Notes: generated from the letters alone by a model not told the origin. Positions 3,083 through 64,000 are shown, counted from the first letter of the stretch. The stretch is 64,000 bases of DNA from Nitrospirillum amazonense (GCF_007827955.1 NZ_VITR01000004.1:135099-199098), one strand, 5' to 3'. Program-made: numbers and translations.

Positions 3083-3088
<6 letters not shown>

Positions 3089-4024: not shown

Positions 4025-4060
4025 TGTCAGCGGTTTGATGGGTGCCTCACGCTCACGGCG

Positions 4061-5324: not shown

Positions 5325-5450
5325 GGTCTGTCTTTCGGCATGGCCATCTCCTAATTCGGAGGATTGCAGGCGACAACCCGACTGATGCTAGGGTGACGGC
5401 CGCGCCTTGGTGATCCTGGGCGTTCCGCGTCGGTATCGAGAGATGGAAGC

Positions 5451-7211: not shown

Positions 7212-7356
7212 GCACCGGCCTGGGCGACCATCATCAGGTGCGCGCCAGCCAGCCGTGCGCCCCTGAGGGTTGCGGTTGCCCCGCCGGCGCGGTAGGCAAG
7301 GGGAAACGCCCAGACGATTGTCCGGGCAACGATAAAGCCGCCAGAGCACGCTCGTC

Positions 7357-9458: not shown

Positions 9459-12269
<2,811 letters not shown>

Positions 12270-31016: not shown

Positions 31017-32984
31017 ATGCTGGAGTTCCCTTCCTGGGCGCTGCCCACGCTGTATGTCGTGGGCACCGTCCTTGGTGTGCTGGTCCTGGCGTTTACAACG
31101 GGCGCTGTTGTCTACATCCGTAACGACGCCGTGGGCGTGGTCGAGAAACTGTGGGCCCTGGGCGGCTCGGTCGAGGAAGGTTTCCTCGCCCTGGGTGGAG
31201 AGGCCGGCTTTCGGCCCGAGACCCTGCGCGGCGGCTTTCATTTCTTCATGCCGCTACAATACCGCGTGCACCGCGCCAATCTGGTGACCGTCCCCCAGGG
31301 CAGCCTGGCCTATCTCTTTGCCCGTGGTGGCCAGCCCCTACCCAACGCGCAGGCCCTTGCCCGCTGGCCCACCGGGGTGGGGGTGGAAAACGCCCGCGCC
31401 TTCGTCAGCCAAGGCGGCCAGCGCGGCCCCCAGCGCCGCATCCTGCGGGAGGGTGTCTACGCCATCAACACGGCCCAGTTCATCGTGTTCACGGAATCCG
31501 CCACCCATGCCGTCACCCTGGGCGACGCCAGCGATGTGCGGGCGGTGGAGACGATGCGCCAGTTGATCGAGGAGCGTAACGGTTTCCGCCCGCTGATCAT
31601 CCGCGACCATGAGGACGCGGTGGGTGTGGTCACCGTCCACGACGGCCCGGCCCTGGATCATGGCGAAATCATCGCCCCCACCGTGGGTACGCATGCCGCC
31701 GATGGGGCCACCTTCCACAACTCCTTCCAGGATCCGGAAACCTTTCTGGCGGCGGGCGGCCGCCGGGGCCGGCAGGAGCAGGTGCTGGTGGAGGGCACCT
31801 ACTACATCAACCGTCTGTTCGCGACCATCGAGGTGCGACCCAAGACACTGGTGGAAATCGGCAATGTCGGCGTGGTCGTTAGCTTCACCGGCCCGCGGGG
31901 CACTGACGTCTCCGGCTCCGACCACAAGCATGGCGAGCTGGTGGCCCAGGGCCAGCGCGGTGTCTGGCAGACGCCCCTGCATCCCGGCAAGTACGCCATC
32001 AACCCCTATGCCGTGAAGGTCAGCACGGTGCCGACCACCAACTTCGTCCTGCGGTGGATCGAAGGTCGCAGCGAGGCCCATGGCTTCGACGATAACCTGG
32101 CGGAGATCAAGCTGATCACCAAGGACGCGTTCGAGCCGGTGCTGCCCCTGTCCATCGTCGTGCACATCGGCTACGACGACGCCCCCTGGGTGGTGCAACA
32201 GTTCGCGGACATCAAGAAGCTGGTTGAACAGACCCTCGATCCCATGGTCAGCGCCTGGTTCAAGGACGCCGCCCAAAGCCGCACCCTGATCGAGCTGGTG
32301 AACCAGCGCGCCGAGGTGCAGCGGGAAGCCCTGGCGGCCATGAGCGCCCGGTTCGCCAAGTACCGCCTGAACGTGAAGGAGGTGATGATCGGCACGCCGC
32401 GCGCGGCCAAGAACGACACCCACATCGACACCATCTTCGAGCAGCTGCGTGCCCGCCAGGTCGCCCGGGAAAAGGTGGAAACGTATGAAAGCCAGCAGGT
32501 GGCGGCGGCCAAGGAGCTGGAACTGCGCGCCGCCGAGGCGCGGGCGGCGGCCCAGGGCGACCTGACCAAGTCGGCCGTGTCGATCGAGGTGGCGCAGAAC
32601 CACGGTCGTGCCGAGCTGGCCCGCAAGACCCAGGAGGCGGAGGCGACCAAGGTTATGGCCGAGGCGACCGCGATGCGCACCCGCACCGAGGGCCGCGCCG
32701 AGGCCGACCGCGTGGCCGCCATCGGTGACGCCAACGCCCAGGCCGCCAAGGCCCAGGTCGACGCCTTCGGCGGGGCGGAGATGGCCCTGTCCAAGGAGGT
32801 CGCCGCCATGCTGAGCGGGGCCATCACCCAGGCCAAGGTGCCGTTGGTGCCCACCGTGGCCATGGGCGGCGCCGAGGGGGGGCATGGCACCCTGGTGGAT
32901 GCGCTGGTCAGCCTGCTGATGGCCCAGGGCGGGCTGGACACCTTGGTGAAGCAGCGGGGCAAGCAGCCGGAGACGGCGGCCTAA
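31017..32984 (+). CDS. Flotillin-like SPFH/band-7 domain membrane protein (YqiK-like)
   Basis: N-terminal TM helix, SPFH-like core, and a long C-terminal Ala/Glu/Arg/Gln-rich coiled-coil (AEARAAAQGDLTKS...EAEATKVMAEATAMRTRTEGRAEADRVAAIGDANAQAAKAQVD) typical of bacterial flotillins. Confidence 0.6.
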   Translation: MLEFPSWALPTLYVVGTVLGVLVLAFTTGAVVYIRNDAVGVVEKLWALGGSVEEGFLALGGEAGFRPETLRGGFHFFMPLQYRVHRANLVTVPQGSLAYLFARGGQPLPNAQALARWPTGVGVENARAFVSQGGQRGPQRRILREGVYAINTAQFIVFTESATHAVTLGDASDVRAVETMRQLIEERNGFRPLIIRDHEDAVGVVTVHDGPALDHGEIIAPTVGTHAADGATFHNSFQDPETFLAAGGRRGRQEQVLVEGTYYINRLFATIEVRPKTLVEIGNVGVVVSFTGPRGTDVSGSDHKHGELVAQGQRGVWQTPLHPGKYAINPYAVKVSTVPTTNFVLRWIEGRSEAHGFDDNLAEIKLITKDAFEPVLPLSIVVHIGYDDAPWVVQQFADIKKLVEQTLDPMVSAWFKDAAQSRTLIELVNQRAEVQREALAAMSARFAKYRLNVKEVMIGTPRAAKNDTHIDTIFEQLRARQVAREKVETYESQQVAAAKELELRAAEARAAAQGDLTKSAVSIEVAQNHGRAELARKTQEAEATKVMAEATAMRTRTEGRAEADRVAAIGDANAQAAKAQVDAFGGAEMALSKEVAAMLSGAITQAKVPLVPTVAMGGAEGGHGTLVDALVSLLMAQGGLDTLVKQRGKQPETAA

Positions 32985-49290: not shown

Positions 49291-49395
49291 CCTGTCAGGA
49301 GGGGTAGGCGATGCGCGGGACGTATAAGCGGCGGGCGATAAATTATTTTTTAAAAATGATTAAATAATTGCGACCGTTGCAGAATTATAGTGCGT

Positions 49396-49511
49396 CCAGT
49401 GGAACGGGCGACACCATGCAACCGTCCGCGCGACGCTTGCGCAAGCGGGGCCGCAGCTCCGGCCAGTAGCATTGGAATGTCGCACTTCGGGATTGACCCA
49501 CCCCGCCTACA
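49396..49511 (-). ncRNA. Possible cobalamin-riboswitch-like leader upstream of the TonB-dependent receptor (weak)
   Basis: Read on the minus strand: ...TAGGCGGGGTGGGTCAATCCCG...CCGGAGCTGCGGCCCCGCTTGCGCAAGCG...GTCGCCCGTTCCACTGG. This resembles the GGTG..AATCC / CCGGAGCTGCCCCCGC..AAGCG / GCCACTG (B12-box) blocks of cobalamin riboswitches. Spacing is atypical and the B12 box has one mismatch. Confidence 0.25.
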
Positions 49512-49543
49512 AACCATAGACCGATAATCTATCTTATGGAAAA

Positions 49544-50056
49544 TTATCGGACAGTGCTCTCGGCCGGTACCGGGCTCAGCGCCTTGGCTTGCCGCATTAC
49601 GACCAAAGTTTTGAAATTCCTCACATTCTCATCATCCAACAGGATGCGCCGCGTCAGTTCATCGTATCCTTCCATATCGCGGGCGACGATGCGCAAGGCG
49701 AAGTCATGGTCGCCCGTGACGTACCAGGCCTCCACCACCTCCGGTACGGTGGCGATCTTGCGCATGAACTGATCGATGGCGTGGCCGCCGCCGGCATCGC
49801 TGGCGCGGCCGCTATCCCGCTCCAAGGTCACCAGCACCACCATGGTCAGGGGCCAGCCCAAGGTGCGCGGGCGGACGATGGCGATCTCGCGCTCAATGGC
49901 GCCAACCTCGCGCAGGCGGCGAATACGGCGATAGCAGGCGGGCCCCGACAGCCCAACCCGTTCCGCCAGAACCGGCATGGGCACGCGGCTGTCGGCCTGC
50001 AACTGCTCCAACAGTTTATGGTCGATGGCGTCCAGGTCGTGGTCTGGCATGGGCAT
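49544..50056 (-). CDS. Lrp/AsnC family transcriptional regulator
   Basis: HTH (LDAIDHKLLEQLQADSRVPMPVLAERVGLSGPACYRRIRRLRE) plus a RAM domain. Confidence 0.8.
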   Translation of the reverse strand: MPMPDHDLDAIDHKLLEQLQADSRVPMPVLAERVGLSGPACYRRIRRLREVGAIEREIAIVRPRTLGWPLTMVVLVTLERDSGRASDAGGGHAIDQFMRKIATVPEVVEAWYVTGDHDFALRIVARDMEGYDELTRRILLDDENVRNFKTLVVMRQAKALSPVPAESTVR

Positions 50057-50198
50057 CCGCTTGCTGGGGCGCCGAAGAAGGCATTGAGCGATAAATATTA
50101 TCGCCATACGCCAATAAATGACACGTTTGGGCGCTGCCGACCGCTAAACTATGGCGCAAAATTGTCCTCGCGTCGCCCCTCGTCCGTCGGTTTCCCCC

Positions 50199-51107
50199 AT
50201 GTCCCACGATGCCGTCCTGCCCCCGCCCACGGGATTGAGCCGCCTGTCCTCCTTCCTGCCCATGGCCGCCTTGTTCGCCGCCATGGTGTCGGTCACCACC
50301 GGCGCCTCCATCGCCAAGACGTTGTTCCCGGTGACCGGCGCGCAGGGCACCACGGCGCTGCGCTTGACCACGGCCGCCATCATGCTGACGCTGCTGCTGC
50401 GGCCCTGGCGGCTGCGCCTGACGCGGGCCGACTGGGGGCCGCTGCTGGCCTATGGCGGCGCCATGGCCTTTATGAATTCCCTGTTCTACCAGTCCTTGCA
50501 AACCATCCCGGTCGGGGTGGCCATCGCGCTGGAGTTCACGGGACCGCTGGGCCTGGCGATGCTCTCATCCCGCCGCAGAGCCGACTTCCTGTGGATCGGG
50601 CTTGCCATCCTGGGCCTGATGCTACTGTTGCCGATGGAGCGGGCGACAGCCGAACTGGACCCGGGCGGTATTGCCTACGCGCTGGGCGCGGGCCTGTTCT
50701 GGGCGCTCTATATCGTGACCGGCAAGAAGGTCGGGACCGCCCATGGCACCCAGGTGACGGCCATCGGCACCCTGGTCGCGGCTTCGCTGGTGTTGCCGGT
50801 TGGCCTGGTCAAGACCGGCGCCGCCACCCTGTTCCAGCCCGCCATCCTGGGCAGCGCCGTCATGGTCGGGGCGCTGTCCAGCGCCCTGCCCTACACGCTG
50901 GAGATGTTCGCCATGCGGCGCCTGCCGGCGCCCACCTTCGGTACGCTGACCAGCGCTGAACCGGCGGTGGGCGCGCTGATGGCCATGCTGCTGCTGGGGG
51001 AGGCGCTGTCGCCCGCCCATTGGGCGGCCATCGCCATCATCATGGCGGCCTCCATCGGCGCGACGCTCACCGCCCGCCGCTCCGCGCCCCCCTTGCTACC
51101 GGAATGA
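50199..51107 (+). CDS. EamA/DMT family transporter
   Basis: Ten hydrophobic helices in two EamA repeats (…FYQSLQTIPVGVAIALEFTGP…; …YTLEMFAMRRLPAPTFGTLTSAEP…). Confidence 0.8.
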   Translation: MSHDAVLPPPTGLSRLSSFLPMAALFAAMVSVTTGASIAKTLFPVTGAQGTTALRLTTAAIMLTLLLRPWRLRLTRADWGPLLAYGGAMAFMNSLFYQSLQTIPVGVAIALEFTGPLGLAMLSSRRRADFLWIGLAILGLMLLLPMERATAELDPGGIAYALGAGLFWALYIVTGKKVGTAHGTQVTAIGTLVAASLVLPVGLVKTGAATLFQPAILGSAVMVGALSSALPYTLEMFAMRRLPAPTFGTLTSAEPAVGALMAMLLLGEALSPAHWAAIAIIMAASIGATLTARRSAPPLLPE

Positions 51108-51123: not shown

Positions 51124-51954
51124 TCACGTGCCGGGTTTACGGCAATAGTCGCCCAGCGTATAGGCCGCGCGGATCTCATAGGCGCGGCTGGGCTTCAGGA
51201 TAAACTCGCTGGCGCCATACCGCACGGCGCCATCCGGCGCGCCGGCCTGGGGATGCCAGTCATAGGTATAGCCCAGGCGGGTCCAGGGGGCGCCGCCCTC
51301 CACATAGTTCACGCGCATGTTGCGGGCGAACCAGTCCCAGTAGCCTTGCTTTTCCAGGCAGGTGGCGTCCCCCGCCGCACACTCGGGCCGGGCCACGGTG
51401 GATGAGGAATCGAGGGTGCAGTGGGCGGCCGTGACGTCCATGTCGGGACAGGGACGCGCCAAGTCCTCCGGCGCCACCCACATCTCCACCACCTCCGAAT
51501 AGTCCCGGGTGGGATCCAGGCCCAGATACTGCTTCACCCGGTCCGCCTTGGCGGTGGCATCACCGGCGACGCCCGCGCAAAAGTCGTGCAACTGCGGCAC
51601 GGCCGTGACCCACATGGTCCCCCAGCTCGCAGGCGACGTACCGCCCGTCTTGCCGGCGTAATATTTCTCATAGGCCGCCGTCGCCATGGTCGACGCCACC
51701 AGCACCTGGCGGCCATGGGGGCCGTCACGCCACGTCAGCCGGGTATTGTCGGGGACCAGGCGCACCAGATCGGGTCCGATCAGGTCGGGCCGGGCAACCG
51801 CCGCCGCGTTCAGGGAGCGGGCGAACAACTGCGTCGGTGTGGTGTTGGCCCCGGACTGCGAAACAGCAGGGCCCTGCCCGGTCGCGGCGCAGCCCGCCAG
51901 CATCATCAAGGCCGTCGCCCAAACCACCCCGTTCCCGCGCATCTCGTCCCCCAT
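51124..51954 (-). CDS. Cys-rich lipoprotein of unknown function
   Basis: Lipobox MMLAGC. Eight cysteines in the mature part. Same strand as the Che cluster and ~100 nt downstream of it. No recognized domain. Confidence 0.45.
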   Translation of the reverse strand: MGDEMRGNGVVWATALMMLAGCAATGQGPAVSQSGANTTPTQLFARSLNAAAVARPDLIGPDLVRLVPDNTRLTWRDGPHGRQVLVASTMATAAYEKYYAGKTGGTSPASWGTMWVTAVPQLHDFCAGVAGDATAKADRVKQYLGLDPTRDYSEVVEMWVAPEDLARPCPDMDVTAAHCTLDSSSTVARPECAAGDATCLEKQGYWDWFARNMRVNYVEGGAPWTRLGYTYDWHPQAGAPDGAVRYGASEFILKPSRAYEIRAAYTLGDYCRKPGT

Positions 51955-52049: not shown

Positions 52050-54866
52050 TCAGAAAGTACGCTGCCGCACCTCCAGGATGCCGCGGATCTTGGCCGCCAG
52101 CTCGTCCATGGCGAACGGCTTCATCACCATGTCCATGCCCTCATCCAGGAAATCGCCGCGTACGGCGGCATTGGCGGCATAGCCGGTAACGAACAACACC
52201 GGCAGATCCGGCCGCCGCCGCCGCGCGATCTCCGCCAGCTGCCGTCCGTTCAGGCCGGGCAGGCCCACATCGGTGATCAGCAGGTCGATCTGGCTGGACG
52301 ATTCGATGACGCTCAAGGCGCCGCGTCCATCGGCGGCGTGAAGCGCCGTGTAGCCCAGCTCCTGCAACACATCCAGGACCAGCAGGCGGACGGACTCGTC
52401 GTCCTCCACCACCAGCACGATCTCCCCCGCCCCTTCCGGCGTCTCCCCCATGCCGGCCATGCCGGCCTCATGGGCGTCGTCCCCGCCATCACAGGGCAGG
52501 TACAGGGTGATGGCCGTGCCGCGCCACATCTCACTGTCGATGCGCACGTGGCCGCCCGTCTGCTTGACGAAGCCGTAGATCATGGAGAGCCCCAGGCCGG
52601 TTCCCTGGCCGATGGGCTTGGTGGTGAAGAAGGGATCGAAGGCCTTGGCGACCACATCCGGGGGCATGCCCATGCCGGTGTCGCTGACCCGGATCATGAT
52701 GTAGTCCCCTGCCGTCAGCCCGTCATGGCGGGCGGCGTAGGCCCGGTCCAGCGTGGCCCTCCCCGTCTCTATGGTCAGGATGCCGCCGTCCGGCATGGCA
52801 TCGCGGGCGTTGATGGCCAGGTTCAGGATGGCGCTTTCCAACTGGTTCGCGTCACTGCGCGCCGCCACCAGGTTTTCCGCCATGCCGACGCGCAGCTCAA
52901 TCTGTTCGCCCAAGGTGCGGCGCAGCAGATCCTCCATGGATCGCACCAGGCCATTGACGTCGATGGGCTTCGGGTCCAGCGATTGCTGGCGGGAGAACGC
53001 CAGCAGGCGATGGGTCAAGGCCGCCGCCCGCTGGGCGGAGGCCATGGACGCGTCCATGAACCGGTCCAGGTCGCTCAGCCGCCCTTGGGAAATGCGGCGG
53101 CGCACGATATCCAGGCCGCCGATGACCCCCATCAGCATGTTGTTGAAGTCGTGGGCCAAGCCGCCTGTCAGTTGGCCCACGGCCTCCATCTTCTGGGCCT
53201 GGCGCAGCTGTTCCTCGGTCTGGCGCAAGGTGTCGGCGCGCTGCTTGTCCTCGGTGATGTCGCGACCATAGGCGTAAACCAGGTCGCCCTCCTTCGAGGT
53301 GTTCCAGGAAACCCACCGTAAGCTGCCGTCCTTGTGCAGCAGGCGGTTCTCGAAATTGGTCAGGTTCTGGTCATGGATGGCGCCGCTCAGCGCGTCCTCC
53401 GTGACGGCAAGATCCTCGGGATGAACGAAGCCCTGCACCTGCCGGCCCTTCACCTCATCCACGTCGTATCCCAGGATGGCCGTCCAGGAGGGGCTGGCCG
53501 ACCGGCAGACGCCATCGGCGCCGATGATCACCAGCAGGTCGCGGGAGTTGTTCCAGACGCGGTCGCGTTCCCGCGTCCGCTCCTCCACCCGCGCCTCCAG
53601 CGTCTCCGCGAACTGGCGCAGCTTCTCCTCCGCATCCTTGGACGCGGTGATGTCGTAAATGACGCCGATGAATCGGCTACCTGGGCCTTGGCGGCCATCG
53701 CGATCCCGCTGGCCATCGCGCCGGTGCTCACCCCGCTGGGCCAGCCAACGGACCTCCCCGGTATCGGGGCGCCGGACGCGGAATTCACGATACGGCGGCG
53801 CCGTCTCCCCGCTGTCCATGCTGGTGATCAGCGGGGCATCGTCGGGATGGACCACGGCGTTGACGGTGCGCACCGGCAACGCCGTGGTGGGGTGCAGGCC
53901 CAGCAAAAGACAGAACTGTTCCGATACCGAAACGGTGCCGAAGCCGCTGATGTACTCGAACGTTCCCACACCGCCGGCGGTTTGCGCGACGCGCAACTGC
54001 TCTTCGACCCGCTTCTGCTCGGTGACATCAGCCAGCACGCCGCGGAACCGGCAAGCCGTCCCATCGGCCAGACGGTCGGCGCTGCCGCGGGCGGAAACCC
54101 AGTGGACCGCGCCATCGCGGCCCACCACGCGATAATCCTTGGCGAAAACGTCGGCGCCATGCATCACCCCGGCCACGGCGATGCGGATGCGCATGCGGTC
54201 ATCGGTGTGGATGGAATCGAAAAAGGCGTCGGTGGGCAGCCCGTTGCCGGCCTCCACCGGATCCAAACCGTACAACTCGGCGAAACGGGCATCCGCATAC
54301 AATCGCCCGCTGGCCACGTCCCATTCCCAGGCCCCGGCTGTGCCCCCGACCACCTGGGCCAGGCGCGCCCGTTCCTTGGCGTCGGCCAGGGCCTGCCGGC
54401 TGGCCGTAAGTTCCGCCTCCACCTCCAGCCGGGCCAGTTCCAGGGTCTGGTCGGAATGGGTCCAAAGGACGTAAGGCGCGATACCCTGCGCGTCCAGCAC
54501 TGGAGTCAGACGTACGCGATCCCAGAACACGCTGCCGTCCCGGCGCACCACCCTCAGGTCCGCGGTCAAGGCCCGGCAGGCGGCCAAGGCCTGTTCGATG
54601 CCCGACAGGACGGCGGGATCGGCATCGGCGGCGGCAAGGAAACCGAAGGGGCGGCCGGCCAGATCACCGGCCGCATGGCCGGTCAGACGCTCGAACGCCG
54701 GGTTGGCGAAAACCAGGGGCTCGCCCGGACGGCGATGGTCGGTGATGGTCAGGGCCATGCCGGATTGCACCAGCGTGTCCAGCAGCGGGCCGCATAAGGC
54801 GCGCAGTTCCGTTGGCACGCTGCCCTCACGCTCCATCATGACCAATGCCTCCGCTCGGCCACTCAT
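52050..54866 (-). CDS. Multi-PAS hybrid sensor histidine kinase/response regulator (CheS-like output kinase)
   Basis: Four or more PAS/PAC repeats, HisKA (LAHDFNNMLMGVIGGLDI), HATPase_c (GTGLGLSMIYGF) and a C-terminal REC (LVVEDDESVRLLVLDVLQELGY...DVGLPGLNGRQLA). Confidence 0.85.
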   Translation of the reverse strand: MSGRAEALVMMEREGSVPTELRALCGPLLDTLVQSGMALTITDHRRPGEPLVFANPAFERLTGHAAGDLAGRPFGFLAAADADPAVLSGIEQALAACRALTADLRVVRRDGSVFWDRVRLTPVLDAQGIAPYVLWTHSDQTLELARLEVEAELTASRQALADAKERARLAQVVGGTAGAWEWDVASGRLYADARFAELYGLDPVEAGNGLPTDAFFDSIHTDDRMRIRIAVAGVMHGADVFAKDYRVVGRDGAVHWVSARGSADRLADGTACRFRGVLADVTEQKRVEEQLRVAQTAGGVGTFEYISGFGTVSVSEQFCLLLGLHPTTALPVRTVNAVVHPDDAPLITSMDSGETAPPYREFRVRRPDTGEVRWLAQRGEHRRDGQRDRDGRQGPGSRFIGVIYDITASKDAEEKLRQFAETLEARVEERTRERDRVWNNSRDLLVIIGADGVCRSASPSWTAILGYDVDEVKGRQVQGFVHPEDLAVTEDALSGAIHDQNLTNFENRLLHKDGSLRWVSWNTSKEGDLVYAYGRDITEDKQRADTLRQTEEQLRQAQKMEAVGQLTGGLAHDFNNMLMGVIGGLDIVRRRISQGRLSDLDRFMDASMASAQRAAALTHRLLAFSRQQSLDPKPIDVNGLVRSMEDLLRRTLGEQIELRVGMAENLVAARSDANQLESAILNLAINARDAMPDGGILTIETGRATLDRAYAARHDGLTAGDYIMIRVSDTGMGMPPDVVAKAFDPFFTTKPIGQGTGLGLSMIYGFVKQTGGHVRIDSEMWRGTAITLYLPCDGGDDAHEAGMAGMGETPEGAGEIVLVVEDDESVRLLVLDVLQELGYTALHAADGRGALSVIESSSQIDLLITDVGLPGLNGRQLAEIARRRRPDLPVLFVTGYAANAAVRGDFLDEGMDMVMKPFAMDELAAKIRGILEVRQRTF

Positions 54867-54902
54867 GCATGCCCCCCTGCCTTAAAGCCGTGGGCGAAAA
54901 CC

Positions 54903-55550
54903 TCAGCCGGCATTGCCATCCGTTCCCACCACCCGCGTGATGAATTCACTAATCAATTCTTTCAGGGACTGCAGCGATGGCAGGTCCATCAGCATGGCAA
55001 TGTAGCCGCGAATGTCACGGCCGCTGATGGCGAAATTTATGTACAGGAACAGGACAACGCCATTGTCGTCCGGCCTGTCGGACAGTTCGAACAGAATCTG
55101 ACCATCGCCGCGCAAGACCTGGGGCAGCGACATGGCCAGGGGCCGTTGCAGCATGTTGGCCATGGTGGCCAGGCAGCCGTTGAGAACGACGTTACCCGTT
55201 TCGGCCAGCGCCTCCTCCTCGATGTCCAACATCTCGGTCCCCGACAGCTCGTCATGGGTGACGGCGCGGACCAGTTCCAGGCTGTTGGTCTCGGGGAAAA
55301 TCAGCAGCGCGCGGCCGCTGAACGCCCCCGCGAAGTCCTGACGCACGGCGATCAACGGGTCGCTTTCCCGCTCCCGGATCAGGGTGGCCGCCACCCGGCG
55401 CCCCACCACTTCCACCGACGGCACCGATAGGATGACCGGACTGCCCACCATCTTGCGCAAGGCGACTGCCGCGCGGCTGACCCCGATATTGACCAGTTCG
55501 GTCAGCGCGTCATTTTCCAACTCATCCAGGGCTTGGGGATTATGGGTCAT
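54903..55550 (-). CDS. CheC/CheX-family chemotaxis phosphatase-like protein
   Basis: Two copies of the CheC D/ExxxExxN motif (DALTELVN...; EALAETGN...). Start overlaps the stop of the upstream REC gene. Confidence 0.65.
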   Translation of the reverse strand: MTHNPQALDELENDALTELVNIGVSRAAVALRKMVGSPVILSVPSVEVVGRRVAATLIRERESDPLIAVRQDFAGAFSGRALLIFPETNSLELVRAVTHDELSGTEMLDIEEEALAETGNVVLNGCLATMANMLQRPLAMSLPQVLRGDGQILFELSDRPDDNGVVLFLYINFAISGRDIRGYIAMLMDLPSLQSLKELISEFITRVVGTDGNAG

Positions 55551-55939
55551 CCATGCACCGCGCGCAGCTTCAGCGCTGCGCCGGCAACGAAATCGCGAAT
55601 GCCGTCCTCGGTGATGGGTTTGCTGACGAAGGTGGCGTTGGCCGCGCGGGCACGGGCCACCACTTCATCCTGAACATTGGCGGTGGCCAACGCGATCGGC
55701 ATGTCTGGATAACGGTGCCGCAGCTGTTCAGCCAATTCCAGACCGTTACGGCCCGGCATGTTGAAGTCCAGGACGGCCAGATCCACCCGCCTGTCCTGTA
55801 GGGTGGCCAAGGCCTCGTCGGCATTGCCCGCCTCTACCTTGGTCCATGTGGGTTGCAGCGCCGCCAAAGCCTTACCGACAACGATGCGCGCTAGTTTGCT
55901 GTCATCGACGATTAAGACCGTAGTACCCATGTCAACCAT
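55547..55939 (-). CDS. Single-domain response regulator (CheY-like)
   Basis: VLIVDDS...DLAVLDFNMPGRNGLELAEQL...SKP receiver-domain signature (Asp pocket, phospho-Asp, T/S and K). Confidence 0.8.
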   Translation of the reverse strand: MVDMGTTVLIVDDSKLARIVVGKALAALQPTWTKVEAGNADEALATLQDRRVDLAVLDFNMPGRNGLELAEQLRHRYPDMPIALATANVQDEVVARARAANATFVSKPITEDGIRDFVAGAALKLRAVHG

Positions 55940-56055
55940 CCTGCCAAACTCATCCAATCCGCCATTTTATGCCCCCCGGCAGATATCGGTCTTTTCGTTG
56001 GACGCCGGTGGTTCAGTATGTATATCGCGGCCTCAATAATCTTGTCTGCGAAAGA

Positions 56056-56298
56056 CTATGGCGGTGCAGCCAAACAGGGTATGACCCAGTCGCGGAGAAA
56101 TACATCCTCGGCCATACCCCGTACAGTTGGCCGCAAAGCGAGAAAAACTTGCACCACGGCACCATGCAGATGGCGGCTGGCGCTGACGTCGATTTGGGAC
56201 TCGGGCGCCTCCTGCAGCCGGGAGAGCAAAATTTCCGCGTCCTCCGCGCCGCAGTTCCCCGCCAAGCGTATGAGGGGGCCGTCCACGATGATCGTCAT
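56056..56298 (-). CDS. Small hypothetical protein (80 aa) translationally coupled to cheA
   Basis: ATGA overlap with the cheA stop. Sequence MTIIVDGPLIRLAGNCGAEDAEILLSRLQE... is vaguely STAS/anti-sigma-antagonist-like. It could also be a spurious read-on frame. Confidence 0.3.
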   Translation of the reverse strand: MTIIVDGPLIRLAGNCGAEDAEILLSRLQEAPESQIDVSASRHLHGAVVQVFLALRPTVRGMAEDVFLRDWVIPCLAAPP

Positions 56299-58313
56299 GG
56301 CCGTCCCCCACCCAGCCTGTCCCCGTCACGGTGCAAGGCGGCGATCAGGCCCGGCAGGTCCAACACCATCAGCAGCCCGCCGTCCCCCAGGAGGGTGGTG
56401 CCCAACAACCCCGGCATGGCGGCCAACAACCCGGCCATGGGACGCAGCACCACGTCATGCCGCCCCAGGAAGGTACCAACCTCCACCGCCAGCAACGCAC
56501 CATCCACCCGCACGATGACCGCCCGCACGGCCTCCCCTTCCCTGACATCGTCGGCCGGCTGGTCGAGCAGATCGGACAGCGCCAGGAGGGGAACCGCCGT
56601 GTCGCGCAGAACGAAGGCGCGCCCCGCACGGATGGGCAGGACGCGGTCGCGGGTGACGCGCACGGTCTCGATCACGCCGTCCAAGGGCAGGCCGTAGCGA
56701 TCATCGCCTACGGAAACGACCAGCACCTTGGTCAGCACCAAATTCATGGGCAGGGTCAGCCGCACCGTCGTTCCCGCGCCTACTGTGCTCCGCAGTCCCA
56801 CGCCGCCGCCTAGGCGGCCCACAGCGGCGCGGACGGCGTCCATTCCCACCCCGCGCCCCGACAGGACGGTCACCGCCTCCGCTGTGGAAAAGCCTGGGCG
56901 GAACACCAGGTCCAGCACCTGGTCATCGGGCAGTTCGGCCAGCGTGGCCGCTGGCACCACGCCCCGGGCCGCCGCGGTCCGCCGGATACGGTCCGGATCC
57001 ATGCCACGCCCGTCGTCCGTGACCTCGATGACCATGCGGTCGCCTTCCCGCCCCACGGTCAGGCCAATGCGGGCCCGTTCGGGCTTACCCGCCGCGACCC
57101 GCTCCGCCGCCGGCTCGACGCCGTGGTCGACGGCATTGCGCAGCAGATGGGTCAGCGGTTCGAACAACCCCTCCACGATCCCCTTGTCGGCCTGCACCTC
57201 CTGGCCATCCACAACCAGGTCGGCCTCCTTGCCGATGGCGGCGGCCATCTCACGCACCATGCGGGGGAAACGGCGCAAAAGGGGCAGGACGGGCACGAGG
57301 CGGATGTCCGTGACAGTGCGATGCAGCCGGCCGATCAGCCGGTCAAGCATCGCCTGGCGATCGCCCATGATCCGGGCCGCCACGTCCGGGGCCAGGCCAT
57401 CCGCCATACGGGCCGCCAGGTCCGCCAAGGCGTTCTTGGCGACCACCAACTCGTCCACCAACGCCACCAGGGTGTCGACGCGGCTGGCGTCCACGCGCAG
57501 CCCGCGTGGGCCTTCCAATCCTGTCGGGGACGGGCCGATGGACGGTCCTGGGGAGGGGGGCGACCAACTCAGCACCTGGATCTGGTCGGGCATGAAGCGG
57601 AAGGGGACCTTGACCGCCTCCACAGGGGCGGCGGACAGCAGCTCAACCACCAAATCGCAGGCATAGGGATCGTAGGCGTCCGACGCCGGTGGGGCATCGG
57701 GCCGGCGGAAAACCCGAAAGGCCAGCAGATCGGGCACCGCGCGGGCCAGGGCGATGGGATCCTCTCCGCGGAAATAACACCCCGCATCCGGCGTGTAGCG
57801 CAACGCCGTCACGACAGAATGGCGCGCCGCATCCGACGCCTGTTCCCGAAAGAGGCTCTCGACCCAATGAGTGTCCGAGAGGGCGGCCTCGACCCGGCCG
57901 TTGTCGGCCCCGGCAACTGGCGTCCCCGGGACCAGGAAGCCGCGTAAGCGCTGCGACAGGGCACGCGCCACGTCGCCCGCGTCGTCGGGAAGCGCCCCCC
58001 CTGTCACCCTCAGGGCGTCCAGCCAGCGTTCCGTCTGGCCGGTGGCGGCAATCAGGACATCCGTGGCCGCCCGGGATAAGGTCAGGCGGCCGTCCCGCCG
58101 CGCGCCCAGCAGGTCCTCGGCGACATGCAGCACCTCGGCCATCGCCGGCAGGTCGAACAGGCCCACCGACCCCTTCAGGGTATGGATGGCGCGGAAGGCC
58201 TGGTCGACCAGGGCGGCATCTTCTGGCCGCGCCTCCAGCGCCAGCAGGGCCTCACCCGCCTGCTGCACCTGTTCCGGCCCCTCGATGAGGAATTGCTCCA
58301 GCAGTTCATCCAT
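56295..58313 (-). CDS. cheA: Chemotaxis histidine kinase CheA
   Basis: Hpt (HTLKGSVGLFDL), dimerization/HATPase_c (G1/G2 boxes GRGVGMD), and a C-terminal CheW-like domain. Overlaps cheR by 8 nt. Confidence 0.9.
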   Translation of the reverse strand: MDELLEQFLIEGPEQVQQAGEALLALEARPEDAALVDQAFRAIHTLKGSVGLFDLPAMAEVLHVAEDLLGARRDGRLTLSRAATDVLIAATGQTERWLDALRVTGGALPDDAGDVARALSQRLRGFLVPGTPVAGADNGRVEAALSDTHWVESLFREQASDAARHSVVTALRYTPDAGCYFRGEDPIALARAVPDLLAFRVFRRPDAPPASDAYDPYACDLVVELLSAAPVEAVKVPFRFMPDQIQVLSWSPPSPGPSIGPSPTGLEGPRGLRVDASRVDTLVALVDELVVAKNALADLAARMADGLAPDVAARIMGDRQAMLDRLIGRLHRTVTDIRLVPVLPLLRRFPRMVREMAAAIGKEADLVVDGQEVQADKGIVEGLFEPLTHLLRNAVDHGVEPAAERVAAGKPERARIGLTVGREGDRMVIEVTDDGRGMDPDRIRRTAAARGVVPAATLAELPDDQVLDLVFRPGFSTAEAVTVLSGRGVGMDAVRAAVGRLGGGVGLRSTVGAGTTVRLTLPMNLVLTKVLVVSVGDDRYGLPLDGVIETVRVTRDRVLPIRAGRAFVLRDTAVPLLALSDLLDQPADDVREGEAVRAVIVRVDGALLAVEVGTFLGRHDVVLRPMAGLLAAMPGLLGTTLLGDGGLLMVLDLPGLIAALHRDGDRLGGGRP

Positions 58314-59214
58314 GGGCGGCGGTTCCCTGCGCGCGGTTCGGTTGCACGCCTTCCCGGGGCCGCTGATAGACCACCGCGTCCTCGAAGCGGCAGACGGCGA
58401 AGCGGTCGCTCAACCGCGCCAGGGATTCCGAATGCCCCAAGCAGAGGTAACCGCCCGGCAGCAGCCGGTCATAAAGGTTGTCCACCGCCAGGCGGCGGGA
58501 CAGATCGTCGAAATAAATCAGCAGGTTGCGGCAAAAAATGACGTCGAAGCGGCCTTGCGCCGTCAATGTCGCCCCATCCACCAGGTTGGCGCTGGTGAAG
58601 GTCACGGATTCCCGCAGATCCTGGATGATCTGAAAACGCTCCGCCCCGCTCCCCTCGACCGGCAGGAAATAATCCTGGCGCAGCTCCACCGGCAGACGCG
58701 CCAGCGATTTGGCGGCATAGCGGCCCGCCCTCGCCTCCGCCAGGGCGCGGGTGTCGATGTCCGACGCCACGATCTCCACATGATAGGCGTCGACCATGGC
58801 CCAGTTCTCCAGCAACCAGATGGCGATGGAATAGGGCTCCTCCCCCGTGGCGCAGGGCATGGACCAGAGACGCAGCCGGTCACCCGGCCCCCGCCGGGAT
58901 ACGATGTCCGGCAGCATGTCGCGGCTGAGGCACTTCAACTGATGGTCTTCGCGGTAGAAATAGGTCTCGTTGACGGTGAAGCTGTTGATCAGGTGTTCCA
59001 ATTCCACCGGATCGGCGCGCAGCCGGGTGAAATAATCCTCGAAGGTCGCGGCCCCCATCTCGGCCATGCGCTGCGCCACCCGCCGATCGATGTAGTACCG
59101 CTTGCTTTCCCCGAACTGCATACCGGTGCGCAGGTACAGGAACTCGCAGAAGCGGGCGAGATCCGGCGCGCTCAGCGGCGGCGTTTCTCCATCGTCGGCG
59201 CGGCGGACGGTCAT
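58306..59214 (-). CDS. cheR: Chemotaxis protein methyltransferase CheR
   Basis: All-helical N-domain, then SAM-binding domain (LRLWSMPCATGEEPYSIAIWL). Confidence 0.9.
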   Translation of the reverse strand: MTVRRADDGETPPLSAPDLARFCEFLYLRTGMQFGESKRYYIDRRVAQRMAEMGAATFEDYFTRLRADPVELEHLINSFTVNETYFYREDHQLKCLSRDMLPDIVSRRGPGDRLRLWSMPCATGEEPYSIAIWLLENWAMVDAYHVEIVASDIDTRALAEARAGRYAAKSLARLPVELRQDYFLPVEGSGAERFQIIQDLRESVTFTSANLVDGATLTAQGRFDVIFCRNLLIYFDDLSRRLAVDNLYDRLLPGGYLCLGHSESLARLSDRFAVCRFEDAVVYQRPREGVQPNRAQGTAAHG

Positions 59215-60326
59215 GGTCCCACCAGGTCGCGCAGATGGAACGCGATCTTGTCCAGCGGCGCCACGACATCGGCGCCGCCCGCCTTGACCAGTTCCCCCGG
59301 CATGCCCCAGACCACGGCCGTCTCCTCGGCCTCGGCGATGGTGCGTCCCCGCCGCGCGCGCAGCCGGGTCATCGCCGCCGCGCCGTCATAGCCCATGCCG
59401 GTCATGAGCACGCCAACCAGCCGGCGCGCGTCGACATGATCCAGGGCGCTGTCGACCAGCCGGTCGACGCTGGGATGCCAGCGGTATTCCTCCTTGGATG
59501 GGGTGGGCATCACCACCAGGCCCGAGGAGCGCCGGCTCAGGATCACGTCGGCGTCGCCCTTGCCGATGTAGACATGGCCAGGAGCCAGAGGGACAGGCCG
59601 CGTCACCTCCCGCACCGTGAGCGGGCATAGCCGGTCCAGTCGGCGGGCCAGCGCGCCGGTGAAGGTGGCCGGCATGTGCTGCGCCACCACCACCGGCCAC
59701 GGGAAATCGGCCGGCAGCCCGTCCAGCAAAGCATCCAGGGCGGGCGGCCCACCGGTGGAACAGCCGACCAGGACCAAGCCCGGCGGATCCCCCGGCTTGC
59801 CGGCTGGACGCGGGTCGTCCAGCGGATCGGCCTCCTCCAGCACGGGAGGGCGCCTGGCAGCCTCGACAGCCGGGGTATCCCACCCCTGCGCTTGGCGGCG
59901 CAGGCGTTCCACCAGGCGGTGGGACCGGCGCAACCGCGCGCGCGCCGCCCCCCGCACCTTGTCCAGCAGTTCCGGCCCCAACCGGTCCATCTTCAGCGAA
60001 ATCGCGCCATCGGGCTTCTGGATGAAGTCCACCGCCCCCAGCGTCATGGCCTCCAGTGTCACCTCCGCGCCGGCTTCGGTGAGGGATGAAACCATCACCA
60101 CCGGCCGGGGCCGCTCCACCATGATCTGGTCCAGGCAGGAGAGGCCGTCCATCTGCGGCATGTGAACGTCCAGAGTGATGACCTCCGGGTCGAAGTCGCG
60201 CAGCCGCGCCAAAGCCTCCAGGCCGTCGCGGGCGGTGGCGACCTCGAAGTCGCCCGCGGCGGCGAACAGGTCGCCCAACAGCCGGCGCATCAGGGCGCTG
60301 TCATCGACGATCAGGACGCGGGTCAC
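59211..60326 (-). CDS. cheB: Chemotaxis response regulator protein-glutamate methylesterase CheB
   Basis: REC (VLIVDDSALMRRLL...ITLDVHMPQMDG), then methylesterase domain (catalytic Ser/His/Asp context: GMGYDGA, VVAQHMPATFT). GTG start overlaps the cheW stop. Confidence 0.9.
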   Translation of the reverse strand: MTRVLIVDDSALMRRLLGDLFAAAGDFEVATARDGLEALARLRDFDPEVITLDVHMPQMDGLSCLDQIMVERPRPVVMVSSLTEAGAEVTLEAMTLGAVDFIQKPDGAISLKMDRLGPELLDKVRGAARARLRRSHRLVERLRRQAQGWDTPAVEAARRPPVLEEADPLDDPRPAGKPGDPPGLVLVGCSTGGPPALDALLDGLPADFPWPVVVAQHMPATFTGALARRLDRLCPLTVREVTRPVPLAPGHVYIGKGDADVILSRRSSGLVVMPTPSKEEYRWHPSVDRLVDSALDHVDARRLVGVLMTGMGYDGAAAMTRLRARRGRTIAEAEETAVVWGMPGELVKAGGADVVAPLDKIAFHLRDLVGP

Positions 60327-61858
60327 GGCGGCGCCGATCCGGGGTCGCCAACGCCCCCCTGCGGCGCCCTGCCCAGTGCCGCCAACAGGTCACGCTCCGT
60401 CCGGCTGAGCAAGGCCCGCGGCTCGATCAGCAGGATCATGCGGTCAGCGCCGTCGGGGGTGCGCAGGGTGGCGACGCGGGTGAAGAGTGTCTCCCCCCCG
60501 TCCGCCGCGCGGGCCAGATCCGGCGTTTCACGCGTCTGATCGGCGGACAGGGTCAGTATCTCCGACACGCCATCGACGGCGAAGCCCGCCAGCGTGCCGT
60601 CGATGCGCGTGACCATCACCCGGCGCCGCGACCCGGCAGCCCCGGCCACACCGAAGCGGCGGCGCTGGTCGATGATGGGCAGGACCTGACCGCGAAGGGT
60701 CATGGCCCCCTCAATGAAAGGGGGCGCCTTGGGAACGCGGGTCAGGGTGTCGGGCAGGCGCACAACTTCCGCCACCGCGTCGACGGGCAAGCCATATTCC
60801 TCGCCCCCTACGTGGAAGACGACGACGCGGTCAGCCGCCGCATCGGGGTTGACTGCGTCCATGACGGAACTCCCTTCCTCGCCATCCTCGGCGGCCCCCT
60901 GTGCCAGAAGATGGGCCACCGTCTCATGCCGGAACAGCCGTGCGGCGGACAGGATGGAAACCAGGCCGCGACCGTCGGGCAGGCGGCAGAGGGACTGGAT
61001 CTGCGCCTCGCCCCGGCCACGGTTCAAGACGGCCGGCACGGCGGCGACGCTGTCGGCGGGGACCCGCAAGATGGTGGTCAGGCGGTCCACCAGCAAGCCC
61101 AAGTGGCCCCCAGGACCATGGGCCACGACCACACGGGCGCCACGGCCTTCATCCGCACCACCTTCCAGGCCAAGAAGGACGCGGGCGCTGACGATGGGCA
61201 GAAGGCGCCCGCGATGCGAAACGGTCCCGACCATCGCCGCGTCACTGCCGGGCAGGTAGGCCAGATGGTCCGGCACGGTGATGGCCTCCGCCACCTCCGC
61301 CAGCGGCAGGGCGTAGCTCTGCCCCGCCAGGGCGAAGGCCAAGAAGGCCCGTTCATCGACGGCGGCGCGGTCCTGGTGCCCAACGGATCGCGCGCCGCTA
61401 TTGCCCCGGCGCGTCCGCGCGGCCAAACCGGCAAAGGCCCGCCGCAGCAGCTCTTTCAGGTCGATCAGGCGCGCAGCGCCGTCCCCGTCGGTATACAGGG
61501 CGCCATCAGGGCCGGGGCCGGCGGTATCCAGGTCGGCCAGCGTGCCAACCTCATCGACCGCCAAGGCCACAGGTTCACCAGCGTCGAACAGCAGGATACG
61601 GCCGCCCTCGGGGGCCGCCCCCTCATCCCCCTCCAGCAGGCGGGCCAGGGAAATCACCGGCACAACGGCTCCGCGCACGGTCGCTATCCCCATCAGGCAG
61701 GCGGGGGCATGCGGCACGCGGGTGATGGGCGGCGGGCGCAGCACCTCCGTCACCGCACCGGCGGGGGCCGCCAGCCGGGTGGCGCCCACGCGAAAGGTGA
61801 GAACCCGCGGCGGTCCCCCTGCCTGAGTGGCCCTCCCCCGGGAGGATGGTGTGCTCAT
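60323..61858 (-). CDS. cheW: Scaffold protein with three tandem CheW domains
   Basis: Three repeats of the CheW pattern ([14 protein letters not shown]...[16 protein letters not shown]; [17 protein letters not shown]...MVGTVSHRG; [18 protein letters not shown]...IEGAMTLRG). Confidence 0.8.
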
Positions 61859-63831
61859 CCCCCGACCTTCTGGAGTTCGCCCTTCTGGAGTTCATCTGCC
61901 AGCGACGCGATCTCCTCAATGGCGGCGGCCAGATCCTCGGCCCCGCGCGACTGCTGCCGCGCGGCGGTGGCGGCCTGCATCGCAGCCCCGCCGGCCAGTT
62001 CCGCCGCGGCTGCGATCTGTTGCACTCCACTCAGCACCTGGCCCACCGTCGCGCCGATGGCGTCGGCGCCCTGGGCGATCTCGGTGCCCAGCGCGTGAAG
62101 CTCCTGGGCGGAACCGGCGATTCCCCCCAGCCGCACATCGATATCCTTGTTCTTATGCACCTCCGCCTCCGCCACGGCGGCGATGTGCTCCAGATCGCGC
62201 CGCACTGTGGCGACCTGAAGCTGAAACTGGCGGATCAGATCCTTGGCGCGGTCGGCGTTCTCCCCGGAGTCGCGAGCCAGGGCGCGGATGTCGGTGGAGA
62301 CGACGGCGAAGCCCGCCCCCTGGTCGCCCACGCGCGCTGCCTCGACCGAGCCGCTGACGGCCAGCATCGTGGTCTGCACGGCCACGATGGCGATGCCGTC
62401 GACGATCTTTTCCATACGCCGGCCGGACTCTTCCAGCGTGTCCACCAGATCCACCACGGCGCGGGTCTCCGCCAGCGCGGCCCCGACCCCGGCGGTGAGT
62501 TTGCCAACACCCACCCGCCCTTCGGCCAGCAAGACCTGCGACCGCGCCATGCGCTCCACCACCTGGGTGGCGTTGGCGCTGGTGGCCTGGGCCGCCTGGT
62601 GAATCTGCCCCATGGCACTGCTGGATTGCTGGGTGGACGCCGCCTGGATCTGGGCGCCGCGGCTGATCTGGTTGATGGTGATCAGGATTTCACCGGCGGC
62701 GCCGGATAACTGTTGCACCGCCGCCGACAACTGTTCCGCCGCGGCCCCAACCTCCTCCGCCAGGCTGGCGCGCTGGCGGGCGTCGCCCAGGCCGTCCGAA
62801 AGGGCGGCCAGGGCCTCCGCCGCCTCCCGGCTCTGGTCCAGCGCCTGGCTTTGCTGCGCCACAGAGCGTTGGGCCTCGGCCGCCGCGGCCGACTGCTCCT
62901 CCGCCGCGCTGGAGACGCTTTCGGCCCCCTTCTGCGCCTCACGCGCGGCGGTATCCGCCTCCACCGCCGCCAGCAGGATGGCTTGGGCGCCCGAGACCAG
63001 CGCCGCCAGTCCGGCGCGGATATCCTCCAGCAAGATGGAAACAGCCCGGCCTTCCGCCGCTTCGGCCGTGGCCGTCGCGGCGGCGGCGCGGATGCGGGCG
63101 GCGATGGCGCGCACCTCCTCGGTGATGCCGTCGGCCAGGGACTGCACGTCGCGGGACCGTTTCTCCGATGTTTCAGACAGGGCCCGCACCTCGTCCGCCA
63201 CAACAGCGAATCCCCGGCCCAGGTCCCCCGCCCGCGCCGCCTCGATGGCGGCGTTCAGGGCCAGCAAACCGGTCTGGTCGGCGATGTCGGCCACCGTGCG
63301 GGTGATCTCGCCAATATGGGCGGCGTGCAACTCCAGGCCCACGACGATATCAACCGACTTGAGCTGGCGAGCGGCGTTTGCGGTGACCGCACTCACCGAC
63401 GCCTCGATCAGGGCGGCCGCCTCCGTCAGCTGGGTCTGCAAGGCCACGGTGCGCACCTGCGCCCGCTCCGCCCGCTCCCGCGCCTGCTGGAAAGAGGTCG
63501 CCATGCCGGCCACGGCGGCCAAGGATTCATGGCTGGCGGAGGCCGCCTCCTCCGCCGCGCTGGCGATCTGTTCCAGCGACCGGCCCAGTTCCTCCGCCGC
63601 GGCGGCCGCTTCCGCCACGCCGCTGGCCAGTTCCGCCGTGGCGGCGGCGATGCGTTCCGACGCCGTCTGGCGGGTTGTCGGCGGCGCGGCGCGGCGCGGG
63701 CGCTTGGCCGGCGCGTTGGGCTGGGCCGTGGCCGCCTTGGAAGGCCCCGCCGGTGCCGCGGCCGCTTCTGCGGCCAATGCGCGGGAGCGCCCCTTGGCGC
63801 CGGCCAGCCGGGAGGTTTTTACCAATGCCAT
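61855..63831 (-). CDS. Soluble methyl-accepting chemotaxis protein with two signalling (MA) hairpin tips
   Basis: No TM or sensor domain. Two copies of the invariant MCP tip: [35 protein letters not shown] and [35 protein letters not shown]. Ala/Gln/Glu-rich heptad arms. ATG at 63831 (the track start at 63843 is TTG). Confidence 0.85.
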
Positions 63832-64000
63832 GTGTGCCCCCAAATCGGCCCCTGACCAGCGGCCCCCTGTGCCGCCAAGACCCTTGCGGCGCCGGATCTG
63901 GTTTTACAGGCGCCGCGCTTGCCTCGGCAATCGACGTAATGCCATAGGCTATACGGCAGGCGGGTCGGCGCGGACAGAGGAATAGAGGGGCCGAAAAATG

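Follow-up and report, generated by a model that had tools for sequence, protein, structure and literature searches.

Chemosensory systems of class F9 occur in about 2% of bacterial species. In Vibrio cholerae, cryo-tomography has shown that the F9 receptor DosM spans two opposed base plates of CheA and CheW3 to give a flat cytoplasmic array. These arrays appear only under starvation or low oxygen, and deletion of the F9 cheA has no detectable phenotype. The Che2 system of Rhodospirillum centenum, also F9, controls flagellum biosynthesis rather than taxis and its mutants stay chemotactic; che2 of Azospirillum brasilense is dispensable for chemotaxis. The R. centenum system is known by phenotype only. 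Here we describe an F9 cluster in a 64,000-nucleotide stretch of chromosomal DNA (the window) from Nitrospirillum (family Azospirillaceae), where nine co-directional open reading frames (ORFs) occupy positions 52050-63843 on the minus strand. We are confident that the region encodes a complete class F9 system, alphaproteobacterial in subtype (DosM-CheW3-CheB-CheR-CheA-STAS-CheY-CheC), with a conserved PAS hybrid histidine kinase behind it.

The class F9 is already known, and the orthologous cluster of a sister species has been catalogued. For N. amazonense CBAmC, the chemosensory classes listed are ACF (alternative cellular function), F5, F8 and F9, with the F9 gene order [DosMW3BRA.YX] (Mo et al., 2022, PLoS Genet, S6 Table). 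What we add is modest: the predicted STAS identity of one small protein, recognition of a putative CheC-type phosphatase, a deeply conserved kinase that bears a LOV domain in many relatives, and the probable decay of that domain in Nitrospirillum.

Class of the system

Two domain architectures are unique to F9, MCP_signal:MCP_signal (DosM) and CheW:CheW:CheW (CheW3); the hallmarks of ACF systems are the gene order WRW...ABO, CheA:REC and CheR:TPR fusions, and 40H receptors (Mo et al., 2022, S1 Table). Both F9 signature proteins are encoded in the window cluster, and its gene order equals the published CBAmC string, a variant of the F9 order M-W-B...R-(Y)-A. The 672-aa CheA has no REC domain and the 302-aa CheR no TPR domain. 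The order is M-W3-B-R-A-STAS-Y-C-HK, and the receptor modules, of about 43 heptads, are duplicated. Domain architecture thus speaks strongly against membership of the ACF class.

A first-pass annotation of this DNA had read the cluster as ACF-type and as a relative of Che3-type pathways. Neither proposal is borne out. DosM and CheW3 are present, the ACF hallmarks are absent and the CBAmC ortholog is listed as F9, and therefore the cluster is not a Che3-type relative; the CBAmC genome has a separate ACF system besides its F9 system. The same annotation had taken the terminal output to be the hybrid kinase and not a motor-binding CheY alone. The class attached to that idea falls, but a non-standard function and involvement of the kinase may hold, given the non-taxis phenotypes of F9 relatives and the conservation of the kinase described below. 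Correct filing keeps the cluster from being counted as an ACF or developmental pathway.

Receptor and adaptor

The receptor begins with an Ala/Pro/Lys-rich N-terminal tail, followed by tandem methyl-accepting chemotaxis protein (MCP) signalling modules at residues 53-345 and 353-645. The two halves align to each other gap-free over 292 residues, and each half alone exceeds the gathering score of Pfam MCPsignal (84.3 and 76.6 vs 34.6 bits). The best match in the PDB is the long soluble MCP TM1143 of Thermotoga maritima (2ch7), a receptor of 44H type, to which one half compares as 282 vs 282 residues. F9 receptors are classed as 44H; here the EAAR-G tips of the two hairpins, at residues 197 and 497, are 300 residues apart, and judged by this spacing a module corresponds to 42.9 heptads. 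No transmembrane segment was identified in DosM, in which no uncharged stretch is as long as 15 residues, and no sensor domain was identified in it. The sequence thus describes a soluble, double-headed receptor.

CheW3 carries three CheW domains on one polypeptide, which score 79.7, 78.8 and 104.2 bits when taken singly (gathering score 23.5). Its closest homologue, from Nitrospirillum sp. BR 11752, is 93% identical; next are proteins of other Nitrospirillum species, at 63-68%. The window protein is also 66% identical (E 7.7e-175) to P0003, whose 90% cluster includes WP_088873302.1, the F9 CheW3 in S6 of Mo et al. The initial calls of an MCP and of three CheWs were right as to domains, but had overlooked that the MCP consists of two modules with no transmembrane segment and that the CheWs form a single protein.

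Histidine kinase CheA, adaptation enzymes, response regulator and phosphatase

CheA has an Hpt (P1) domain with His44 within an HTLKGS motif, followed by P3 (272-336), P4 (385-523) and P5 (530-659), and it has no C-terminal REC. It is 37-40% identical to the CheA of gammaproteobacterial DosM/CheW3 clusters (tblastn). CheB combines an N-terminal REC (Pfam Response_reg, 7.7e-22) with a methylesterase domain (CheB_methylest, 1.2e-53) and matches the NCBIfam subfamily PRK00742 at 348.9 bits (cut-off 293). In CheR, Pfam identifies no domain besides CheR_N and CheR.

The single-domain receiver (Response_reg, 1.2e-21) has D9, D10, D54, T83 and K104, with F101 at the aromatic switch position, and across 70 orthologues conservation of these catalytic residues is 95% or higher. 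Together with the protein encoded next to it, it is the best conserved product of the cluster (55-95% identity for the receiver and 58-94% for its neighbour).

That neighbour is the protein catalogued as "X". We took two (D/S)-x3-E-x2-N-x22-P motifs in about 200 aa as diagnostic of the CheC type; CheX has one. Two motifs occur in the window protein, D14-x3-E18-x2-N21-x22-P44 and E113-x3-E117-x2-N120-x22-P143, each with conservation of 95% or more among 69 orthologues. Both motifs also line up with those of T. maritima CheC (1xkr), which a profile built from the orthologues matches at 5e-15. Single-model scores are more equivocal: Pfam CheX is exceeded (37.6, gathering score 27), Pfam CheC is not reached (19.2, gathering score 22), and NCBIfam CheC_Thtogales is matched at 1.1e-12 over 7-196 of its 201 positions, with 48 bits vs an equivalog cut-off of 250. 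The motif pair argues for "X" being a two-site CheC-type CheY-P phosphatase, an assignment that is new here. The catalytic residues of CheA, CheB, CheR, CheY, CheC and the hybrid kinase are all retained.

Conservation of gene order and of the hybrid kinase

A scan with a CheW3 profile, using one genome per species, gave 80 loci, which were then compared with ten window proteins by tblastn. The full order, DosM-CheW3-CheB-CheR-CheA-orf80-REC-CheC-kinase (orf80 being the 80-aa ORF behind cheA), was identified in many genomes, including those of Nitrospirillum, Geminicoccus, Aureimonas, Caulobacteraceae, Phenylobacterium, Microvirga, Hyphomicrobium, Beijerinckia, Sphingomonas and Roseomonas and their relatives. 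In at least five orders of Alphaproteobacteria the nine genes stay together. Because the gene order recurs in about 65 other genomes, the arrangement is not due to chance. One metagenome-assembled genome, MFD00731.bin.1.279, has three near-identical copies of the cluster on three contigs (L015, L016 and L017), probably as a result of assembly redundancy.

The kinase is 938 aa long from an ATG at 54866, or 929 aa from 54839. A degenerate LOV-like PAS domain (residues ~27-135; window 54460-54790) is followed by three more PAS domains, HisKA (H-box AHDFNN), HATPase and a C-terminal REC with its receiver Asp in the motif LLITDVGLPG. Pfam families matched are PAS_3, PAS_9, PAS_4, HisKA, HATPase_c and Response_reg, and NCBIfam matches are PRK13557 (1.9e-140) and BluLightHisKinLov (1.6e-20, residues 35-147). 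By length, the orthologues form classes of ~660, 775 and 920-960 aa, which differ in how many PAS domains they have; the H-box, the ATP-binding boxes and the receiver are conserved among them.

The kinase is part of the cluster in 65 of the 67 related genomes that could be assessed, which span at least five alphaproteobacterial orders, and in 63 other loci the ORF immediately behind cheC encodes PAS-HisKA-HATPase-REC. Where its ATG could be placed (52 loci), the start is -23 to +51 nt from the cheC stop in all but one, the outlier being L051 at +205. Overlap of the kinase start with the cheC stop is common, with gaps of -4, -8, -11 or -17 nt. At L040 the kinase gene is rearranged to a position between cheY and cheC, still linked, and in an alphaproteobacterial metagenome-assembled genome CheC and the kinase form one in-frame ORF of 1124 aa (L049:16069-19443). 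The published F9 gene-order strings end before the kinase gene (Mo et al., 2022, S6 Table). The comparison indicates that the kinase is a conserved part of the cluster, which is new here.

It could be argued that the kinase is an independent two-component sensor that happens to lie beside a che operon, and that the real system is formed by the eight genes from DosM to CheC. The gap of 36-63 nt before the kinase in Nitrospirillum, the published strings that stop at X, the two Roseomonas genomes that lack the kinase, and a receiver that could serve an unlinked Hpt protein and response regulator are all compatible with such independence. Adjacency in the 63 other loci, in at least five orders, is not easily reconciled with it, nor are the frequent overlaps with the cheC stop, or a linkage that survives both the rearrangement and the in-frame fusion. 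Neighbourhood conservation this deep is unusual for unrelated genes, and we consider an independent kinase unlikely.

Loss of the LOV motif in Nitrospirillum

In kinases of the long class the first PAS domain is LOV-like. Sixteen of 52 kinase orthologues keep NC[RK]F[LM]Q; others have NCRxLQ. Most orthologues of the long class outside Nitrospirillum keep GRNCRFLQ or a close variant, as well as LNxRKDG, FWN and Q.DVT. A canonical LOV motif (GRNCRFLQ) is found in Microvirga, Aureimonas, Hyphomicrobium, Caulobacteraceae and Roseomonas relatives (loci among L012, L020-L056, L066, L067 and L077). In all seven Nitrospirillum kinases, that of the window included, PFGFLAAA, LRVxRxDG, FWD and WTHxDQT replace the LOV motifs, including the flavin-adduct Cys. 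The window kinase reads GRPFGFLAAA at the flavin-binding motif and does not have the LOV Cys. Since the flavin-adduct Cys, NCRFLQ and the downstream LN/FWN/Q residues are all replaced, the window kinase is probably not a photoreceptor; a canonical LOV photoreceptor is ruled out by the replaced Cys and motif. The motif distribution suggests that the ancestral partner kinase was probably a blue-light sensor, and that the Nitrospirillum kinase is probably blind and reliant on its other PAS domains. In the literature searched, no relevant mention of a link between LOV kinases and che clusters was found.

A further connection to light was identified among the gammaproteobacteria, where three loci (Halomonas, Vreelandella and Stutzerimonas) have the Vibrio-type order DosM-W3-B-x-R-Y-A. 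The cluster of Stutzerimonas stutzeri (L079, 7991-20329) encodes DosM, CheW3, CheB, a HEAT-repeat protein (x), CheR, CheY, CheA and an orf80-like STAS protein, then a second CheY, a soluble MCP and a bacteriophytochrome PAS2-GAF-PHY module. This phytochrome module is a second, independent link between F9 and a photoreceptor. Also present, upstream of the S. stutzeri cluster, is a PAS-GGDEF-EAL protein.

The small protein encoded behind cheA

The start of orf80 overlaps the cheA stop by 4 nt, and the gene corresponds to the '.' of the published gene-order string. In 72 loci, among them two of the three from gammaproteobacteria, cheA is followed by the gene for a homologue of 75-98 aa. The window protein matches Pfam STAS_2 at 18.6 bits, below the gathering score of 29.2, and 23 of 34 orthologues also match STAS_2, all of them sub-threshold. 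A single-sequence word-indexed search recovered 2 relatives only. An alignment-based search, for which the alignment was built from synteny, recovered 263, mostly unnamed, with a few annotated as "STAS domain-containing" or "anti-anti-sigma factor". Searched against PDB sequences, the family profile gave no significant match, and fold comparison alone succeeded. An AlphaFold2 model built from 72 sequences (predicted local distance difference test score, pLDDT, 92.6) has the order strand-strand-helix-strand-helix-strand-helix, which is the STAS topology.

In the synteny-derived alignment, His45 (56164-56166) is the sole invariant residue besides Met1, and it is located in the turn that leads from strand 3 into helix 2. 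Going by secondary-structure register rather than residue-level superposition, His45 may occupy the position of the phospho-serine of SpoIIAA/RsbV. The model points to the 80-aa ORF being a minimal STAS-fold protein located behind cheA in both F9 subtypes, a finding new here.

Between the STAS gene and cheY is a spacer that is AT-richer than its surroundings. When five Nitrospirillum genomes and three other genera were aligned, it proved strongly conserved in Nitrospirillum and not beyond. The spacer has no Rfam match and no consensus promoter or terminator. Its conservation suggests that it may hold an internal promoter, an operator or another regulatory site.

Gene junctions and genomic context

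Coordinates are listed in Table 1. All nine consecutive minus-strand Che-like genes reported by the first-pass annotation were recovered, and searches of Pfam and NCBIfam agreed with the gene assignments and upheld the domain identities of the cluster ORFs. The overlapping start and stop codons it described from the MCP through the 80-aa ORF and between REC and CheC, with short gaps elsewhere, are likewise seen in the coordinates. The overlap is 4 nt for MCP/CheW3, CheW3/CheB, CheB/CheR, CheA/orf80 and REC/CheC, and 8 nt for CheR/CheA. REC, the kinase and the lipoprotein-like ORF are preceded by gaps of 98-125, 36-63 and about 107 nt, respectively. Gene calls on a public 17-kb contig with an identical CheW protein place the MCP start at ATG 63831 and the REC start at 55930.

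Table 1. Coordinates of the cluster genes and adjoining features in the window.
Feature	Coordinates	Strand	Length and supporting evidence
MCP (DosM)	61855-63843 (ORF; likely ATG 63831)	-	658 aa; Pfam MCPsignal x2
CheW3	60323-61858	-	511 aa; Pfam CheW x3
CheB	59211-60326	-	REC + methylesterase; Pfam, NCBIfam
CheR	58306-59214	-	302 aa; Pfam CheR_N + CheR
CheA	56295-58313	-	672 aa; Pfam Hpt, H-kinase_dim, HATPase_c, CheW
80-aa ORF (predicted minimal STAS fold)	56056-56298	-	Predicted fold
Spacer between STAS gene and cheY	55931-56055	-	Intergenic
REC (CheY-like)	55547-55930 (or 55957 from TTG start)	-	127 aa; Pfam Response_reg
Putative CheC-type phosphatase	54903-55550	-	215 aa; Pfam CheX; two motifs
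Hybrid histidine kinase	52050-54866	-	PAS-rich HisKA-HATPase-REC; Pfam, NCBIfam
Lipoprotein-like ORF	51124-51942	-	Lipobox; no Pfam/NCBIfam match

As first noted, no CheZ, CheD or flagellar genes were identified in the cluster or its immediate flanks. Flagellar genes were also absent among the window ORFs examined, and tblastn found no other che genes in the window. A scan of the intergenic gaps for consensus promoters and terminators gave nothing above background, and so the operon boundaries cannot be set from sequence. A search of the cluster against Rfam identified no RNA family. Upstream, on the same public contig, are a divergent gene for a 140-aa protein and genes for MsrB and MgtC; downstream are the lipoprotein-like ORF, an EamA transporter, an AsnC regulator and a TonB-dependent receptor.

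The lipoprotein-like ORF has a lipobox (LAGC) and eight Cys, and matches no Pfam or NCBIfam family. Its family is large and uncharacterised, with 1062 representative clusters at E<=1e-3. Among the 80 loci it adjoins the kinase in Nitrospirillum only. The suggestion that it is co-transcribed with the cluster may hold within that genus; as a part of the system it finds no support outside Nitrospirillum, and a role as tenth member was rejected on its large uncharacterised family and a linkage confined to this genus.

Genes for UvrA, GyrA, an SPFH/Band-7 protein, a TonB-dependent receptor, an AsnC-type regulator and an EamA transporter make up the wider context of the window (at 209-3127, 9459-12269, 31017-32984 and 46672-51107). 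GC content falls to 0.59 at 4001-6000, vs about 0.66 in the rest of the window. A 733-aa minus-strand ORF (5388-7589) has no Pfam match and is overlapped by a plus-strand ORF of 586 aa.

Proposed mechanism and its alternatives

In chemosensory pathways CheB and CheY receive phosphate from CheA, adaptation of the array is the task of CheR and CheB, and CheC removes the phosphate from CheY-P. By likeness to V. cholerae F9, the Nitrospirillum DosM would form a rod with a signalling tip at each end, and DosM, CheW3 and CheA would assemble into a flat, two-layered cytoplasmic array. Because DosM lacks a sensor domain, input would come from other soluble receptors encoded elsewhere. CheA would phosphorylate CheB and the 127-aa CheY, the array would be adapted by CheR and CheB, and the CheC-type phosphatase would reset CheY-P.

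The remaining two proteins can be placed by analogy. Sinorhizobium meliloti CheS is a STAS-only protein encoded in a che operon that binds CheA and alters which CheY is served by CheA. The predicted STAS protein, if CheS-like, may similarly bind to CheA as an accessory and influence its choice of receiver. The PAS hybrid kinase may be a second kinase that senses cytoplasmic signals and is wired into the same phosphoryl pool. It could either phosphorylate CheY or swap phosphate with CheA-P1 via its own REC, as in the CheA3/CheS3 pair of Che3. The signal sensed by the kinase might be redox or energy state; in many relatives it might be blue light via the LOV domain, which is degenerate here.

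On balance, and with confidence only slightly better than even, we propose that the alphaproteobacterial 'BRA.YX' F9 system may be a nine-gene, two-kinase machine. Ancestrally, a LOV blue-light kinase would have been an integral partner of the DosM/CheW3/CheA array, sharing with it the CheY, the CheC-type phosphatase and the CheS-like STAS protein; in Nitrospirillum the LOV domain would have decayed and the input passed to the PAS domains that are left. The output probably bears on a choice of lifestyle or flagellation and not on the momentary switching of the motor. If true, the two-kinase arrangement would supply the sensor-less F9 array with an input (light, redox or energy state) and phosphate with a route, both of them firsts for an F9 system.

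Several observations weigh against the overall reading of the region as an F9 system with a partner kinase. By name F9 is a flagellar class, and 97% of the species that have it are flagellated, so that direct control of the motor by CheY is conceivable. For the BRA.YX subtype the array, the routes of phosphotransfer and the output are extrapolated, and the STAS assignment draws on a predicted structure and sub-threshold sequence matches. The kinase could simply be co-regulated with the che genes. It is missing from the two Roseomonas loci mentioned above (one further locus is too short to assess), and the CheC-kinase fusion, from a metagenome-assembled genome, is possibly an assembly error.

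An ordinary flagellar pathway would have CheA generate CheY-P for the motor switch and CheC terminate the signal, the array sensing cytoplasmic cues as in energy taxis. Such a role accords with the co-occurrence with flagella for which F9 is named, with a full CheA/W/Y/B/R set accompanied by a CheY-P phosphatase, and with a CheY that has all of its catalytic residues and the aromatic switch residue. However, F9 is not needed for chemotaxis in V. cholerae (cheA1), R. centenum or A. brasilense, and in V. cholerae the arrays are confined to starvation or low oxygen. N. amazonense also has F5 and F8 systems, and a tightly linked hybrid kinase is atypical of motor-control pathways. We regard ordinary flagellar chemotaxis as quite improbable.

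An ACF pathway akin to R. centenum Che3, Pseudomonas aeruginosa Wsp or the developmental Che systems of Myxococcus xanthus, with the hybrid kinase as terminal output, would suit the absence of flagellar genes nearby, the second PAS kinase (as CheS3 in Che3) and the non-taxis phenotypes of F9 relatives, but is highly improbable given the missing ACF hallmarks, the two F9 signature proteins, an orthologous cluster catalogued as F9 in a genome with its own ACF system, and a CheC-type phosphatase that is not among the listed ACF components.

The STAS protein, the two-site CheC phosphatase and the PAS kinase that travel with the cluster are testable handles on F9 input and output. Candidate inputs are blue light in Microvirga and Caulobacteraceae and redox or energy state in Nitrospirillum, and the cluster also offers a candidate phosphorelay. 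As Nitrospirillum is a cultivable plant-associated diazotroph, such tests are practical.

Comparison with known systems

The F9 cluster of N. amazonense CBAmC is from the same genus and has the same gene order, with synteny that extends through the hybrid kinase and the lipoprotein-like gene. It is from another species, and its proteins are 63-89% identical to those of the window. The published CBAmC entry is a catalogue string only, in which '.' is unidentified, the phosphatase is called X and the hybrid kinase is not included.

Cluster I of V. cholerae (DosM VC1403, CheW3 VC1402, CheA VC1397) has the same double-signalling soluble receptor, triple CheW and CheA, CheB, CheR and CheY. The window system would form the same two-layer cytoplasmic array as V. 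cholerae. Gammaproteobacterial loci of the V. cholerae layout have a small STAS-like gene behind cheA, like the window. Unlike the window, V. cholerae has the order DosM-W3-B-x-R-Y-A and lacks both a CheC-type phosphatase and an adjacent PAS hybrid kinase. The tip spacing of 300 residues suggests a rod somewhat longer than that of the 35-nm Vibrio array.

At the level of single proteins, the predicted phosphatase shares with the CheC of T. maritima and Bacillus subtilis its length, its pseudo-twofold layout and two ExxN active sites. It differs in that no CheD partner is encoded here and its second motif starts with Glu rather than Asp or Ser. The CheS of S. meliloti and Agrobacterium is likened to orf80 by fold, comparably small size and location in an alphaproteobacterial che operon; CheS belongs to another che system, and the orf80 family has the invariant His45 and a shortened STAS core. 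LOV-HK-REC kinases (PRK13557/BluLightHisKinLov) share with the window kinase the HisKA-HATPase-REC core and a LOV-like first PAS domain, but the window kinase lacks the adduct Cys and has three extra PAS domains.

R. centenum Che2 (Berleman & Bauer, 2005), also from the Rhodospirillales/Azospirillaceae, shares a tripartite CheW and a soluble MCP (MCP2) and likewise contains small unknown ORFs. No other F9 system has a phenotype; mutants of Che2 are hyper- or non-flagellated but keep taxis. Che2 is of a different subtype, [DosMW3B.RYA], its CheA2 is fused to REC, and no CheC or hybrid kinase is listed for it.

The Che3 system of R. centenum belongs to the ACF class. CheA3 is reported to phosphorylate the receiver REC1 of CheS3, and only CheS3-P phosphorylates CheY3. 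Che3 differs from the window cluster in having CheA3-REC and two separate CheWs and in lacking DosM, CheW3 and CheC. CheS3 is not orthologous to the window kinase and uses REC1, whereas the window kinase has one REC, at its C-terminus. What the two clusters share is a second PAS-type sensor kinase with a receiver alongside a single-domain CheY, and Che3 is thus the best mechanistic template for the two-kinase layout proposed for Nitrospirillum.

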